From the NCBI GenBank assembly GCA_021785935.1, contig JAJYOG010000001.1, forward strand, positions 128,743 to 192,742: DNA of 64,000 nt, given 5' to 3'. The position numbers and the translations under genes were made by a program. This DNA comes from Actinomycetes bacterium. Lineage in GTDB: Bacteria > Actinomycetota > Thermoleophilia > BMS3ABIN01. How positions within the stretch are numbered: the stretch's first letter is position 1; every line of letters starts with the position of its first letter. The notes beneath the pieces are model-generated. The model had not been told where the DNA came from. It saw nothing but the letters and a program-made list of their open reading frames with translations, and made no database searches. Shown here in pieces: positions 17,489 through 22,721 of the stretch.

Positions 17489-18187
17489 TCAAAGTGGCCT
17501 TTTTTTCGGTATTCCCGGGCGACGCGGAAAGCGATCGGGTGTAGGTTTTATCTTTCGGAAGATCCAGACAGTCAGATTTGTTGATCCAGGAAATGGGGTC
17601 ACAGACTTGATAGAAACCAGGCTGCCCCCAAGAATTGCTGCCACATCCCTGCCGTTTTCTTCTTCAGCCTGTTTGTACGCCCCCCGCTGCAGCAGGGAAA
17701 ACCCGCCAATCTTTATCAGCGGCATCGTGTATTCCAGCACAACAGTTAATGGACCGACGGCCCTGGCCAGAGCAAGATCGAAGCAATGCCTCATATCCGA
17801 GCGGGCGGCAACTTCAGCTCGTTCCTGCACAACCTTTACGTTGTAAAGTCCAAGTATTTCAATCGCTGAGGAAAGAAAAGCGCATTTCTTGCCATTTGAT
17901 TCGAGAAGAGAAAATTCTTTTTCGGGATTGGCAATTGCCAAAGGCAGGCCCGGAAAACCGGCACCGCTACCAACGTCAACGACTGAATGCGAATTAATAT
18001 ATTCAGGAAACGCCAGGAGACTCAGGCTGTCCCGCAAGTGCACATTGATAATGCGGTTCTTTCCAGTAACAGCGGTAAGATTGCGGTCTTCAACACCGGC
18101 GAGAACCTCAAGGAGCTTTTCAAGCGCGGAAATCTGGTGGCGGTCGAAATGATAAAGGTTAAGAAAATCCAGCTGCCAGGTAATCAT
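17489..18187 (-). CDS. rsmG: 16S rRNA (guanine527-N7)-methyltransferase
   Basis: SAM motif VVDVGSGAGFPGLPLAI. Conserved position after mnmG; its start overlaps the mnmG stop (TAATG). Confidence 0.9.
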   Translation of the reverse strand: MITWQLDFLNLYHFDRHQISALEKLLEVLAGVEDRNLTAVTGKNRIINVHLRDSLSLLAFPEYINSHSVVDVGSGAGFPGLPLAIANPEKEFSLLESNGKKCAFLSSAIEILGLYNVKVVQERAEVAARSDMRHCFDLALARAVGPLTVVLEYTMPLIKIGGFSLLQRGAYKQAEEENGRDVAAILGGSLVSIKSVTPFPGSTNLTVWIFRKIKPTPDRFPRRPGIPKKRPL

Positions 18188-20073
18188 TATTGACAGGCAT
18201 GTAGATAAATCGACAGGACTGCTATATCTGACGGGGAAACACCTGCAATGCGTGAAGCCTGCCCCAGTGAAACCGGGCGAAGGCGGGAAAGTTTCTCGCG
18301 AGCTTCGTGAGTTAGCCCATTCAGGCCATAATAAATGAAATCATCCGGGATCAACGTATTTTCACGCCTGAACTGACGGGATATCTGCGACAACTGCCGT
18401 TGGATATAGCCTTCGTACTTTATTTCAATTTCTGCGCGCTCGATTATTTCTTTATTCACAAGGTCAGCGTTTGTTTGGGAAAAGGAGCCGCCATCGAGGT
18501 GGGGAAGGAGCTGTAACAGACCGAGTTCGGGCCGCTTAAGGATCTGATCGGTTTTTTGAGGTTCGGAAATGGCTGAGCTGCCTATGCCGGTAAGAAATTT
18601 ATTGACCATGGGGCTGGGGTAGATGCGCGTCGAGCGCAATAGCGATATAAGATCATCGAGTTTTTCCTGCGAGGAAAGCACGGATGCAATTTCAGTGGCC
18701 GAAACAAGACCCAGGGCGTGACCGACCGGTGAGAGGCGGCTGTGAGCATTATCATGCCGTAAAAGCAGACGGTATTCCGCTCTGGAAGTGAACATACGGT
18801 ATGGCTCATCGACTCCTTTGGTTACGAGGTCGTCGATTAAAACCCCTATATAGGCTTCACTTCGTTGAAGAATAAGGGGTTCTTCGCCTTTGACAGATTG
18901 CGCGGCATTGATACCGGCTATTAGTCCCTGAGCGGCGGCCTCTTCATAGCCACTGGTGCCATTGATTTGGCCGGCAAGAAAGAGGCGCAAAATTGGCTTG
19001 GTTTCCAGAGATGATTTCAGCTGGCTTGGAATAATATAATCGTACTCGACCGCATAACCAGGACGCATAAGCCTCGCTTCTTCGAGGCCGGGGGTCGCAT
19101 GTATGATTTCTTCCTGGACCCAGACGGGAAGGCTTGTCGTCAGTCCCTGGAGGTACATCTCTCGAGTATAACGGCCCTCGGGCTCTACGAAGACGGGATG
19201 TCGCGGACGGTCGGGGAAAATCATAATCTTCCGGTCTATTGAAGGGCAATAACGCGGTCCTTTACCGCTGATAGAACCGGTTTTAATCGGTGAAAGATGG
19301 AGATTACGGCTAACGACTTCGTGGGTCTGAGAATTTGTATAGGTGAGATAACACGGAAGCTGTTGGCGTCCATCTGGCTTTGAGAATGGGGAGAAAGTAT
19401 TGGGGATGGGGTCGCCGTCTTGCACGGCCATTTTTTCCGGTCTGATGGTGCGTCCGTCGATTCTGGGGGGTGTTGCTGATTGGAACCTTCCCAACTCCAA
19501 AGAATTGGCCTCGAGGCTTGATGAGAGGTTTTCAGCAGGGGGTTCGCCCATGCGACCCGCGGGATAGCGAAGATCGCCAATGACTATTTTGCCCTTCAGA
19601 AAAGTGCCACAAGCCAAGACAATTGCGTGCGAGCTAATAAGACTGCCGTCAGAAAGCTTAACTCCACCAATTGTTTCACGTGAAACAATTAGCTCGGAAG
19701 CTATTCCCTCAAGAACCCGGAGGTTCGGTTCGGCCATGATGGCCTTCTTCATATTTTCTTCGTAAAGCTTCTTGTCTGTCTGTGCCCGGAGGGCTCGCAC
19801 AGCTGGTCCTTTGCTGGTGTTGAGCATCTTCATCTGGACGAACGAACGATCGGTGTTGCGACCCTGTTCACCACCGAGAGCGTCGATCTCTCGTGTCAGT
19901 TGACCCTTGCCAACACCGCCGACCGCCGGGTTGCATGGCATCAGGGCGACCTTTTCCAGGTTGAGAGTTAGCAGAAGTGTGGTACAACCCATGCGCGCCG
20001 AGGCCAGAGCGGCCTCGCAGCCGGCGTGGCCTCCGCCGATGACGATGACATCGAAGGAATCGAAAGCGCTCAA
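18187..20073 (-). CDS. mnmG: tRNA uridine 5-carboxymethylaminomethyl modification enzyme MnmG (GidA)
   Basis: FDVIVIGGGHAGCEAA, MPCNPAVGG, GPRYCPSID, and a full C-terminal helical domain. 628 aa. Confidence 0.95.
   Translation of the reverse strand: MSAFDSFDVIVIGGGHAGCEAALASARMGCTTLLLTLNLEKVALMPCNPAVGGVGKGQLTREIDALGGEQGRNTDRSFVQMKMLNTSKGPAVRALRAQTDKKLYEENMKKAIMAEPNLRVLEGIASELIVSRETIGGVKLSDGSLISSHAIVLACGTFLKGKIVIGDLRYPAGRMGEPPAENLSSSLEANSLELGRFQSATPPRIDGRTIRPEKMAVQDGDPIPNTFSPFSKPDGRQQLPCYLTYTNSQTHEVVSRNLHLSPIKTGSISGKGPRYCPSIDRKIMIFPDRPRHPVFVEPEGRYTREMYLQGLTTSLPVWVQEEIIHATPGLEEARLMRPGYAVEYDYIIPSQLKSSLETKPILRLFLAGQINGTSGYEEAAAQGLIAGINAAQSVKGEEPLILQRSEAYIGVLIDDLVTKGVDEPYRMFTSRAEYRLLLRHDNAHSRLSPVGHALGLVSATEIASVLSSQEKLDDLISLLRSTRIYPSPMVNKFLTGIGSSAISEPQKTDQILKRPELGLLQLLPHLDGGSFSQTNADLVNKEIIERAEIEIKYEGYIQRQLSQISRQFRRENTLIPDDFIYYGLNGLTHEAREKLSRLRPVSLGQASRIAGVSPSDIAVLSIYLHACQ
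19672..19687. other. parS centromere-like site (perfect consensus)
   Basis: TGTTTCACGTGAAACA is an exact match. It is embedded in the 22-bp perfect palindrome AATTGTTTCACGTGAAACAATT (19669-19690) inside the mnmG coding sequence. Confidence 0.85.
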
Positions 20074-21314
20074 CAGCCCGTCTCGTCGTCTATCCGTATG
20101 GTAACGGGGCGCTTGCCTTTATGGGCGATGCGCTCGATAAGCAAGGTAACAAATTCCAGATTTGTAGTCAAAGGAAGAGAATCGCTTATTTCAAGCACGT
20201 ATGAAGCCGCATTTACTCCAGCAATGAAACCCAGAACGGCTGCTTCAGAATAATTGCAGCTGCCTGCGGCCCGTCCGGAAAAGAAGAGCCCGTGTTTTCC
20301 GATTGCCTCAAGGTTCTCGCCCACCTGCCCGGCCGTTAGCACCAGGTGCAGAACAGCATAGGAGCCGCGGGTTATCCAGGCGCTGGAGAAACCATCAAGC
20401 TTCCGCAATTCCTCGAGCTGGCTGGCGCGGTTCCCAGTGGTCTCCAGACCGAAGCCCAGCACTTCTCCTGGTTGCGATCCGTCCACTCGGATACGCGGAT
20501 CGCCTGAAAGTGCAAAGCGCATATCTTCGCTATTGCGCGGATCGCCTGAAGGAGCAAAGCGTACATCTTCGCTATTGCGCGGATCGCCTGAAAGTGCAAA
20601 GCGCATATCTTCGCTATTGCGCGGATCGCCCGTGGGAGACTGCGGGCGCCCCTTCAAATCATCCTGAAGGCTTCGTGAAGAAATGCGGGGCGAGGTTCTG
20701 CCTGATACCTCCAAAAGTTCGATGTCCACCTTTTGCAGGGACTTTACCAATGAATCCGAGGGTATCTCGGCCCATCGGCCTCCCGGAATTTCTCGACCGG
20801 AATCGATCACGCGCCCGTGCAGGAAAGTGCCGGCCGCAACGATGACAGCGGTGGCTCTGAAGTTCTCTCCAAAATTAGTCTCGACTTTCCAGCCGTCTTC
20901 GGACGCCTCGAGCTTCACCACCAATCCCTGCCGAAGAGCGACCCCATCCTCGTTCTCCATTTGCTCCTTCCAGGCGAGACCGAGGCGCCGGCGATCTATC
21001 AGAACTCTTCCAATGACTTTATCGGTCGAGACAATGTCCTCGGACTTAAGCAGCTTTGGCAACTGCCCTCCCAGCATCGCCAGCTCCGAAAGCAAGTTAT
21101 GACGGCGATCGTTACAGTCATCAACTAATACCGGAGTTGCGGGAGGATAGCCGACCATGTCGAGATTGATCGTCAGGCAAAGAACGCTGGCGCCGCGCCT
21201 GGCAGCCGCTATACTGGCCTCGCAGCCGGACGGCCCGGCGCCGATGACGACGATGTCAAAATCGTGATCTGAATTACATGAAGAAATGGAATTGCTTTCT
21301 TTTTCGCGGTTCAT
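20070..21314 (-). CDS. truncated MnmG/GidA-like FAD-binding paralog lacking catalytic Cys motifs and the C-terminal domain
   Basis: FDIVVIGAGPSGCEASIAAARRGASVLCLTINLD aligns with the MnmG N-terminus. GYPPATPVL replaces MPCNPAVGG and there is no RYCPS motif. GLFFSGRAAGSCNYSEAAVLGFIAGVNAA aligns with LFLAGQINGTSGYEEAAAQGLIAGINAA. The protein ends about 200 aa early, and its stop overlaps the mnmG start. Confidence 0.7.
   Translation of the reverse strand: MNREKESNSISSCNSDHDFDIVVIGAGPSGCEASIAAARRGASVLCLTINLDMVGYPPATPVLVDDCNDRRHNLLSELAMLGGQLPKLLKSEDIVSTDKVIGRVLIDRRRLGLAWKEQMENEDGVALRQGLVVKLEASEDGWKVETNFGENFRATAVIVAAGTFLHGRVIDSGREIPGGRWAEIPSDSLVKSLQKVDIELLEVSGRTSPRISSRSLQDDLKGRPQSPTGDPRNSEDMRFALSGDPRNSEDVRFAPSGDPRNSEDMRFALSGDPRIRVDGSQPGEVLGFGLETTGNRASQLEELRKLDGFSSAWITRGSYAVLHLVLTAGQVGENLEAIGKHGLFFSGRAAGSCNYSEAAVLGFIAGVNAASYVLEISDSLPLTTNLEFVTLLIERIAHKGKRPVTIRIDDETGC
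20495..20630. repeat. 42-bp in-frame tandem repeat, about 3.2 copies
   Basis: Units start at 20495, 20537, 20579 and a partial one at 20621 (gcggatcgcctgaaagtgcaaagcgcatatcttcgctattgc). Copies 1 and 3 are identical; copy 2 has a few substitutions. Encodes GDPRNSEDMRFALS x3. Confidence 0.9.
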
Positions 21315-21338: not shown

Positions 21339-22721
21339 TTATTTGCCTATGCAGAACTCGTGGAAGATAGTATCGAGCAAGTCCTCAACCAGCTCATCAC
21401 CTGTGATCTCACCCAGGGAGCTGGCCGCGGCACGAAGCTCTTCGGCTATCAGCTCTTCGCCAAGACCGACGCGCAGACCCTGGCGCGCCCGATTGATTGC
21501 GTCGCTGGAAAGCTGCAAGAGCTGCCGGTGGCGCTCGTGGGTGACGATGGGGCCTTCAAGCGGCGGCAGCGCCCCGCCGACAACGAGCTCGGCAATCCTC
21601 TCCTTGAGAACCCGCAGCCCCTGCCTGGTCATCGCCGAAATGATAACTGGTTCATGCGGTAGCAGGCCGCGGTTAAATCGCGGGTTCCGGCCGCGGAACT
21701 TGTCGCACTTGTTGATGACGTAAATCGTTTTTTCCTTGGGGATGGAGGTGAGCAATGCCCGGTCGTGGTCATCCTCGGGCTCGCTGCCATCCAAAAGGCA
21801 AAGAATTAAATCCGCCTCTTTCATGGCGTTCCGGCTGCGGTCGATGCCGATCTGTTCGACTTCGTCGGTTGCCGGCCGGAGACCGGCGGTATCGATCAGT
21901 TGCAGGGGAATTCCCTGGATGTTGATGATCTCCTCAATCGTATCCCGGGTTGTTCCCGGAATCTCGGTAACGATGGCCCTTTCCCGCATTAGCAGGGAAT
22001 TTAACAGGCTGGATTTGCCCACATTCGGCTTGCCGACAATTGCGGTGCGAACTCCCTGGCTTAGCACGCGCCCGACAAAAGCGGATTCGATGAGATCCTG
22101 AAGCCGCGCCTGCAGCTCGCTTAAACGCTCATCGGCCTCATCACGATTGAGTTCCTCAATATCCTCGTCGGAAAAATCGATATCCGCTTCCACGGCTGCC
22201 ATGACCCGCAGGATAGCTCTTCGCAGTTCCTGGATCTCCTTTGACAGGGATCCACCGAGCTGGGACAGGGCAACGCGCAGACCGGCCTCGGTCTTGGCCG
22301 AGATAATCAAGGCTACGCTTTCAGCCTGAGCCAGATCGATGCGTCCGTTGAGGAAAGCGCGGCGCGTAAATTCCCCTGGGGTCGCAAGGGTGGCTCCGTG
22401 CTCCAGGAAGAGCGACAGCACTTTTTGCTGGGCTACAGGGCCGCCGTGGCAATTGACCTCGACGATATCCTCGCAGGTGTAGGTATTTGGAGCCTTCATC
22501 ACGCCGACGAGAACCTCATCTACAACCTCTCCGGCCAGGGGATCATGGATTACTCCGTAATTAAGGCTATGCGAAAGAGATTGTTCGAGCCGCCGGCCGC
22601 CGGCCGTCCTGAAAACGTGGCCGCAGATTTCCAGGGCTTCGGGACCGGTCATGCGGACTATGCCGATGGCGCCGGCTCCGAGCGGTGTGGATATTGCAGC
22701 GATAGTAGGAACATTTGGCAT
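21339..22721 (-). CDS. mnmE: tRNA modification GTPase MnmE (TrmE)
   Basis: TIAAISTPLGAGAIGIVRMTG, G1 motif GKPNVGKSSLLN, C-terminal FCIGK. Confidence 0.95.
   Translation of the reverse strand: MPNVPTIAAISTPLGAGAIGIVRMTGPEALEICGHVFRTAGGRRLEQSLSHSLNYGVIHDPLAGEVVDEVLVGVMKAPNTYTCEDIVEVNCHGGPVAQQKVLSLFLEHGATLATPGEFTRRAFLNGRIDLAQAESVALIISAKTEAGLRVALSQLGGSLSKEIQELRRAILRVMAAVEADIDFSDEDIEELNRDEADERLSELQARLQDLIESAFVGRVLSQGVRTAIVGKPNVGKSSLLNSLLMRERAIVTEIPGTTRDTIEEIINIQGIPLQLIDTAGLRPATDEVEQIGIDRSRNAMKEADLILCLLDGSEPEDDHDRALLTSIPKEKTIYVINKCDKFRGRNPRFNRGLLPHEPVIISAMTRQGLRVLKERIAELVVGGALPPLEGPIVTHERHRQLLQLSSDAINRARQGLRVGLGEELIAEELRAAASSLGEITGDELVEDLLDTIFHEFCIGK

Follow-up and report, generated by a model that had tools for sequence, protein, structure and literature searches.

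A shortened MnmG paralog encoded between mnmE and mnmG in Thermoleophilia, a candidate inert partner of MnmG

In this study, we examined an open reading frame (ORF) that lies between mnmE and mnmG on a 64,000-nucleotide stretch of DNA, hereafter the window, from an Actinomycetes bacterium of the class Thermoleophilia (contig JAJYOG010000001.1, positions 128,743 to 192,742 of the forward strand); the source genome, GCA_021785935.1, is a metagenome-assembled genome (MAG) that is 79% complete. The ORF encodes a short relative of the tRNA-modifying protein MnmG (GidA), which we refer to as MnmG2. The following genes make up the locus, in the order in which they are read.

21339..22721, minus strand: mnmE, 460 residues, with its C-terminal FCIGK motif intact
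20070..21314, minus strand: MnmG2 ORF (short MnmG paralog), 414 residues, ATG start, with a flavin adenine dinucleotide (FAD)-binding domain and reduced insertion domains
18187..20073, minus strand: canonical mnmG, 628 residues, TTG start, with the MPCNPAVGG and RYCPS cysteines and with both PF21680 and PF13932 present
17489..18187, minus strand: rsmG (gidB), directly after mnmG; with parA and parB, likewise on the minus strand of the window, it completes the conserved string mnmE-X-mnmG-rsmG-parA-parB

These coordinates bear out the first-pass annotation, which had placed a 414-residue ORF between mnmE and mnmG at a distance of 24 nt from mnmE, the gap being counted from the mnmE stop at 21339. 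The overlap with the mnmG start that had been noted at the same time is real and 4 nt long; however, its letters are TTGA and not ATGA, as the TTG start codon of mnmG occupies 20073..20071 and the TGA stop codon of the paralog 20072..20070.

The resemblance of MnmG2 to MnmG is, at the level of sequence, far beyond chance. The protein matches the GIDA family PF01134 in two stretches with 148.3 bits (E=4e-43; gathering threshold 22.1 bits), and BLASTP aligns its residues 19-400 with the MnmG encoded in the window at 28% identity (E=7e-27), so that the alignment across the FAD-binding fold that had initially been read from the peptides DIVVIGAGPSGCEAS and GLFFSGRAAGSCNYSEAAVLGFIAGVNAA is confirmed. 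Against the NCBIfam equivalog model TIGR00136 it reaches 130.7 bits in two stretches, which is below the cut-off of 524.85, while the MnmG of the window scores 798.4 bits. A profile search of PDB sequences matched MnmG at E ~1e-53 and located a deletion of ~80 residues at positions 212-289 of Escherichia coli MnmG. The AlphaFold2 model made from 29 family members has a predicted local distance difference test (pLDDT) score of 82.4 and a predicted template modelling (pTM) score of 0.83, and is weak only at the N terminus and at residues 232-257; its best Foldseek matches are all MnmG structures (2zxh, 9hip, 3cp8 and 3ces) with template modelling scores (TMq) of 0.66-0.74, the top three (2zxh, 9hip and 3cp8) giving 0.71-0.74 at E ~1e-26, and the match probability is 1.00 for seven MnmG structures. 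The chain ends at approximately position 433 of the 628 residues of MnmG, and PF21680 and PF13932, which represent the C-terminal helical, MnmE-docking part, have no match in MnmG2 but are present in the neighbouring MnmG; the MnmE-binding domain had been reported as missing in the first-pass annotation, and it is.

A different possibility was that the ORF encodes a disguised TrmFO. The TrmFO/RlmFO proteins, folate/FAD-dependent 5-methyluridine methyltransferases also termed 'small GidA', are of similar size, contain a GIDA-type FAD domain and have no MnmG helical domain. However, the scores of MnmG2 against the TrmFO models TIGR00137 and NF003739, 22.8 and 26.4 bits, are far under the cut-offs of 428.65 and 262, the match covers only residues 331-387 with the last FAD motif, the fold match is poorer (TMq 0.49) and the catalytic cysteines of TrmFO are absent from MnmG2. 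In addition, no true TrmFO was found in the genome from which the window derives, and this identity was rejected.

To compare residues, we used an alignment of 90 sequences, consisting of 38 MnmG proteins and four groups of paralogs, and took the functionally tested residues of E. coli MnmG from Table S3 of PMC12397908. The elements of MnmG2 to which this comparison refers are listed below.

21216..21242, minus strand: dinucleotide-binding motif G25-A-G-P-S-G-C-E-A33 (GxGxxGxEA), placed by alignment
21126..21152, minus strand: loop G55-YPPATPVL63, which replaces the MPCNPAVGG loop carrying Cys47, placed by BLASTP and alignment
20494..20630, minus strand: in-frame 42-bp tandem repeat of GDPRNSEDMRFALS units, 3.3 copies, found by Tandem Repeats Finder (TRF) with 91% matches
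20250..20276, minus strand: second FAD motif G347-RAAGSCNY355 (GQINGTSGY in MnmG), placed by alignment, with Arg in place of MnmG Q369
20073..20111, minus strand: C-terminal tail R402-PVTIRIDDETG-C414, in which the final residue is a Cys and R402 and R407 are equivalent to MnmG R427 and R432

Conservation across MnmG reaches 95% or more in 131 columns, 37 of which are retained in the paralog family of the window. What all paralog groups have in common is the core of the FAD fold, namely GxGxxG, GTF, GGR and G..G...Y (G..G...Y.E in the window's family); MnmG G13, G15 and G18 are kept by every group, G25, G27, P28, G30, E32 and A33 of MnmG2 are invariant among the 29 family members, and these 29 sequences share 65 invariant columns altogether. 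Lost from all short paralog groups are C47, N48, C277 and Q369. BLASTP sets GYPPATPVL opposite ALMPCNPAV of the window's MnmG, and A59 of MnmG2 falls into the column of C47, a residue invariant in all 38 MnmG proteins. No short paralog group has a Cys there; the column is occupied by Ala in 82% of the paralogs of family f1, by Tyr in 70% of those of the sister family f5 and by Phe in 90-100% of the forms from low-GC organisms described below. The RYCPS segment with Cys277, known as MnmG-specific motif 1, lies within the deletion. Both the exchange of the Cys47 loop for GYPPATPVL and the absence of RYCPS had been seen in the first-pass annotation, and careful alignment does not bring either cysteine back. 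Seven of the eight reported tRNA-binding residues (R275, K283, R286, R432, R436, W484, K547 and R554) are gone as well, R407 remaining as the equivalent of R432, and the paralog is acidic (family median isoelectric point 5.3), whereas the equivalent part of the cognate MnmG is basic (8.3). C47 and C277 of MnmG are required for the formation of 5-carboxymethylaminomethyluridine (cmnm5U), though not for the reduction of FAD (PMC10723064). Because these two cysteines and seven of the eight tRNA-binding residues are lost, MnmG2 cannot, as judged from its sequence, function as an MnmG; by the same comparison, everything known to serve MnmG in catalysis, tRNA binding and MnmE docking has disappeared from it.

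Despite these losses, the gene is conserved. Whole-genome searches found the paralog in 23 of the 24 genomes of the window's family, which cover nine genera, in every case adjoining mnmG, and 22 of these 23 carriers have kept the reading frame intact, a partial frame being all that is left in G003. Among 301 genomes of the class, mnmG is confined to two families, both of which have a GidA-like gene upstream of it; the two genes are missing from the remaining 226 genomes, and most families of the class are without mnmE and mnmG altogether. The order mnmE-X-mnmG-rsmG was seen in all opened loci of both Thermoleophilia families, whereas in the Bacillota and deltaproteobacterial loci used for comparison mnmE is followed directly by mnmG. 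In the window, the stop codon of the paralog overlaps the start of mnmG; of the 10 loci from the second family (f5) in which mnmG was included, 8 show this overlap as well. In a search of 5.8 billion proteins we obtained ~30 clusters from Thermoleophilia/Actinobacteria MAGs with 40-93% identity and lengths of 353-466 residues, after which the scores drop sharply to those of true MnmG; in the databases such paralogs are named 'FAD-dependent oxidoreductase' or, wrongly, MnmG. The MnmG2 gene was never found apart from mnmE and mnmG.

Among unsaturated pairs, the ratio of nonsynonymous to synonymous divergence (dN/dS, Nei-Gojobori) stands at 0.20 for the paralog in three comparisons at dS 0.6-0.85 and at 0.35 in a fourth at dS 0.15, compared with 0.07-0.20 for mnmG and 0.08-0.19 for mnmE in the same pairs. 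MnmG2 is therefore under purifying selection, relaxed two- to three-fold, and the gene is functional. The first-pass annotation had allowed for a degraded duplicate lacking conservation and selection in relatives; with the gene present throughout nearly the whole family and selected at these ratios, this identity of the ORF is rejected. Two neighbouring genes are broken in individual genomes, mnmG being split into two frames in G017 (L021, 4088-5984) and mnmE into three in G177 (L072, 1-1531), which may reflect either an assembly frameshift or real inactivation.

Related genes occur beyond the class. When 1.8 billion representatives were searched exhaustively with a profile, we obtained ~17 clusters of the exact MnmG2 type and, in addition, further short cysteine-less GidA-like proteins from low-GC organisms, whose source names include Actinomycetota and Candidatus Humimicrobiaceae. 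At the low-GC loci the order is dnaA | rpmH rnpA yidD yidC jag mnmE, the short GIDA gene, mnmG, rsmG, parA and parB, and in four of them (L081-L084, low-GC Actinomycetota) a gene for a 290-residue radical S-adenosylmethionine protein and a DUF123 gene come directly after parB in this ori-proximal string. In a phylum sample of 401 genomes, GIDA-type genes were detected in 65, and the 20 loci that we inspected show the upstream copy in several forms: at 581-606 residues, at 469 residues, at 323-366 residues, as a remnant of ~200-340 residues, or absent. The copies of 581-606 residues, from genera of two families, have both cysteines and Q369 intact; those of 469 residues have no catalytic cysteines. 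In the tree, all canonical MnmG proteins, actinobacterial and outgroup alike, fall on one side of a branch and all upstream copies on the other (Shimodaira-Hasegawa approximate likelihood ratio test, SH-aLRT, 92), with the Thermoleophilia paralogs on long branches. Within one family the tree of the upstream copies mirrors that of mnmG, and full-length, 469-residue and short forms are nested within each other (SH-aLRT 100). The simplest account of this pattern would be one old tandem duplication of mnmG, followed by parallel reduction of the upstream copy in several lineages. The paralog had initially been described as 'inserted' between mnmE and mnmG; while this is correct as to its position, the full-length two-cysteine copies in sister lineages make 'upstream copy of an old tandem duplication' the more fitting description. 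Taken together, the ORF very probably encodes a functional protein that belongs to a hitherto undescribed family of shortened MnmG paralogs, whose origin lies in an ancient tandem mnmG duplication within deep-branching Actinomycetota.

The full-length tandem copies (L087-L091, L103 and L104) are located, like MnmG2, between mnmE and mnmG and likewise group away from canonical MnmG in the tree, but differ from MnmG2 in having MPCN[SGT], [KR]YCPSIE[DE]K, Q369 and the helical domain all present at their length of 581-606 residues; they may still be catalytic. After Cys277, canonical downstream actinobacterial MnmG proteins read CPSIDRK, whereas CPSIE(D/E)K is found in the upstream copies of full length (L087-L092 and L101-L104 compared). 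At one locus (L095, G305:C44:22500-29500) the upstream remnant shares 379 nt at 99.7% identity with the adjoining mnmG and is otherwise diverged, which looks like gene conversion. Gene conversion with mnmG was rejected for the window, where, unlike in L095, similarity is limited to 30-56 nt around the GxGxxG codons. In family f14, two loci (L093 and L105) have a gap of ~900-950 bp between mnmE and mnmG at the usual site of the paralog; no similarity was detectable in this gap in L093 and one weak match in L105, and it may represent a fully decayed copy.

The 42-bp repeat in the window lies at the scar left by the loss of the Cys277 region, and disorder is predicted for it (pLDDT <50 at residues 232-257). 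Most homologs have no insert at this site. Its copy number varies, as P0002 (386 residues) is otherwise identical to the 414-residue protein of the window but has two 14-residue units fewer. Tandem peptide repeats or low-complexity inserts of their own are found in surface loops of P0013, P0014 and P0017, insertion domain 1 of P0014 carrying GGFDTDAVARDGSAQ three times and VEGR(I/V)L three times, and the paralogs of f5 bear inserts of 100-250 residues.

The window's family also has a cysteine pair of its own. C353 (codon 20256..20258) aligns with T375 of E. coli MnmG, which Table S3 of PMC12397908 gives among the functionally important residues. The Cys in GRAAGSC353NY is present in 28 of the 29 aligned members, and the ending RPVT(I/V)R-x4-5-Gly-Cys, with Cys as the final residue, is likewise found in 28 of 29. 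When 59 non-identical sequences were considered, 48 had both cysteines, 11 had neither and none had a single one; on the tree, each cysteine trait changes 4-5 times, which leaves too few independent contrasts for a test of coupling (p=0.5). In the sister family f5 there is no Cys at the C353 position, and a terminal Cys occurs only in L073, which ends in ...DEGC. The low-GC forms that we inspected are inconsistent, with a Cys at or up to two residues from the C terminus in P0166 and P0150 and a Cys inside the FAD motif in P0138. Hence the description of the protein as 'catalytically stripped' in the first-pass annotation is valid for the chemistry of MnmG but goes too far for the family as such, which has a terminal Cys and, opposite T375, a further Cys that is nearly invariant.

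What, then, does MnmG2 do? The reading that we favour, though tentatively, is that it is an inactive protomer that would form a heteromer with MnmG. MnmG is a homodimer, and in the cryo-electron microscopy structure of the E. coli α2β2 complex MnmE and FAD are engaged by a single MnmG subunit, for which the authors discuss that one protomer serves MnmE and the other the tRNA (PMC12397908). Since only one protomer engages MnmE and FAD, the other one could degenerate. A duplicate MnmG would at first have paired with MnmG, an obligate homodimer, whereupon one protomer would have lost the catalytic cysteines, the tRNA-binding residues and the MnmE-docking domain, the heterodimer keeping one working site. 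MnmG2 would then be the inert flavin-fold half of an inherently asymmetric pair with MnmG, housed within the MnmE-MnmG machinery for the synthesis of cmnm5(s2)U34 at the wobble uridine, and the two proteins would be made jointly from one operon by way of the overlapping stop and start codons, with which the overlaps in the window and in the f5 loci are consistent. The pair of Cys353 and the terminal Cys might have been added later and in this family specifically, for example as a redox-sensitive lid over the flavin pocket.

Several points weigh against an inert partner derived from an actinobacterial duplication. The near-invariant C353, the cysteine at the end of the chain and the well-conserved motifs around the pocket (GYPPATPV, GGRWAEIP and AWITRxSY) resemble, as sequences, an active site rather than a scaffold, and the helical domain that was lost may contribute to the dimer contacts of MnmG. 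The paralog is absent, or present only as a remnant, in L093, L094, L096, L100, L105 and L106, all of which have MnmG, and a partner would therefore have to be dispensable in those lineages. Lastly, the actinobacterial MnmG clade does not include the paralogs (SH-aLRT 92), which makes an older or foreign origin possible, although long-branch attraction is a likely reason for this placement.

The first-pass annotation had offered a pseudo-enzyme partner and a neofunctionalised FAD protein as its two options; both are still the leading ones. As a neofunctionalised flavoenzyme, MnmG2 would combine FAD with a thiol pair of its own, Cys353 by the flavin and Cys414 on a flexible C-terminal arm, and could carry out thiol/disulfide or persulfide chemistry or another step on U34 or a different RNA, either alone or feeding MnmEG. 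This would be in line with the invariance of the FAD motifs, with the exact coincidence of C353 with the T375 position, with a tail that holds the R427/R432 equivalents and in 48 of 59 sequences the Gly-Cys end, with the strict co-occurrence or joint absence of the cysteines and with the strong conservation of the pocket-lining motifs within the family. The cysteine-bearing arm even has a precedent in MnmE-MnmG, because MnmE inserts a C-terminal FC(V/I/L)GK arm/helix with a catalytic Cys into the flavin pocket of MnmG (PMC12397908). However, the 11 of 59 members without the pair, the sister family f5 and the low-GC forms all keep the gene in the same slot, and the few independent changes on the tree make the coupling of the cysteines hard to assess. 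Furthermore, the MnmG segment proposed to bind reduced nicotinamide adenine dinucleotide (NADH; motif 273-287) is deleted, no CxxxxC signature of flavoprotein disulfide reductases is present, and PF07992 (Pyr_redox_2) matches at residues 19-90 only, with 31 bits. We regard a new flavoenzyme as the main alternative, possible but doubtful.

A more specific enzymatic role, that of an MnmC(o)-like FAD oxidase converting cmnm5U34 to 5-aminomethyluridine (nm5U34) in the inherited U34/flavin pocket, appears very improbable. Its appeal lies in the FAD fold, the U34-directed ancestry and the operon linkage to mnmE and mnmG, and in the fact that homologs of MnmC, MnmM and MnmL were not detected, which leaves no known enzyme for the step. 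Yet among 25 relatives neither MnmC(m) (PF05430, 0/25) nor MnmM (PF06962, 0/25) was found and no MnmL reached the cut-off in those tested, so there is no sign of a 5-methylaminomethyl (mnm5) pathway, and the absence of MnmC(m) and MnmM makes such a role unlikely; moreover, the protein is acidic and has lost the tRNA-binding residues and the helical domain. MnmA, in comparison, is above its cut-off in all 25 relatives, including seven genomes without mnmG, and therefore the 2-thiolation of U34 seems to persist without the xm5 branch. Similarly improbable, and strongly disfavoured, is a slowly decaying duplicate without function that is retained only through its location inside an essential operon. 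The gene does evolve two to three times faster than mnmG, tolerates repeat and low-complexity inserts and has been reduced to remnants or lost in other lineages, but its frame has stayed intact in the carriers of its own family, with the one exception, and in the second family despite saturated synonymous divergence, its dN/dS of 0.2-0.35 is not ~1, and neither the 65 invariant columns nor the confident structural model would be expected of decay.

In the literature that we searched for MnmG/GidA paralogs, MnmG-like proteins and duplications, only TrmFO is termed a GidA paralogue, and a third gene of the mnmE-mnmG operon is not described; the statement in the first-pass annotation that no three-component mnmE/gidA-like/mnmG arrangement was known agrees with the literature searched. 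The closest known protein is MnmG/GidA itself (TIGR00136; 3ces, 2zxh, 3cp8 and 9hip), with which MnmG2 shares the FAD-binding fold, parts of both insertion domains and the operon, but from which it differs in lacking Cys47, the Cys277 loop (~80 residues) and the helical domain (residues 398-629). TTHA1897 of Thermus thermophilus (2cul, 232 residues) is also a small stand-alone GIDA-like FAD domain, of unassigned function (E=5e-9, TMt 0.82); however, it is only 15% identical, has no insertion domains and is not known to be linked to mnmE or mnmG. Inactive paralogs that act as partners of tRNA-modifying enzymes have a precedent in ADAT3 with ADAT2 and in Trm6 with Trm61, where a homo-oligomeric bacterial enzyme has become a heteromer with one degenerate subunit. 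These pairs are eukaryotic and biochemically proven, whereas for MnmG2 we only infer a heteromer.

Extending the favoured reading of an inert MnmG partner, one can envisage a three-protein machine for the wobble uridine in deep-branching Actinomycetota, in which the transient asymmetry of the MnmG homodimer, with one protomer on MnmE and FAD and the other one free, would have become genetically permanent in the form of a catalytic MnmG and an inert MnmG2, several times independently from one old duplication, and in which the Thermoleophilia would have gained in addition a Gly-Cys arm that reaches the new Cys at the T375 position and gates or supplies thiol chemistry at the flavin pocket, much as the Cys helix of MnmE does in MnmG; as a whole, this picture is speculative and rather unlikely. 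MnmE and MnmG have to unite three cofactors, three cysteines and the tRNA in a complex that is asymmetric (PMC12397908, PMC10723064). Our findings correct the annotation of MnmG2 genes, which at present carry either the generic label 'FAD-dependent oxidoreductase' or, in error, that of MnmG, and the full-length, truncated, remnant and absent forms provide a clean example of the repeated reductive evolution of a duplicated homomer. If MnmG2 does pair with MnmG, it would be a natural MnmG protomer that has given up catalysis, tRNA binding and the docking of MnmE, which would show which of these functions must share one protomer and would offer a stable asymmetric complex for structural work.

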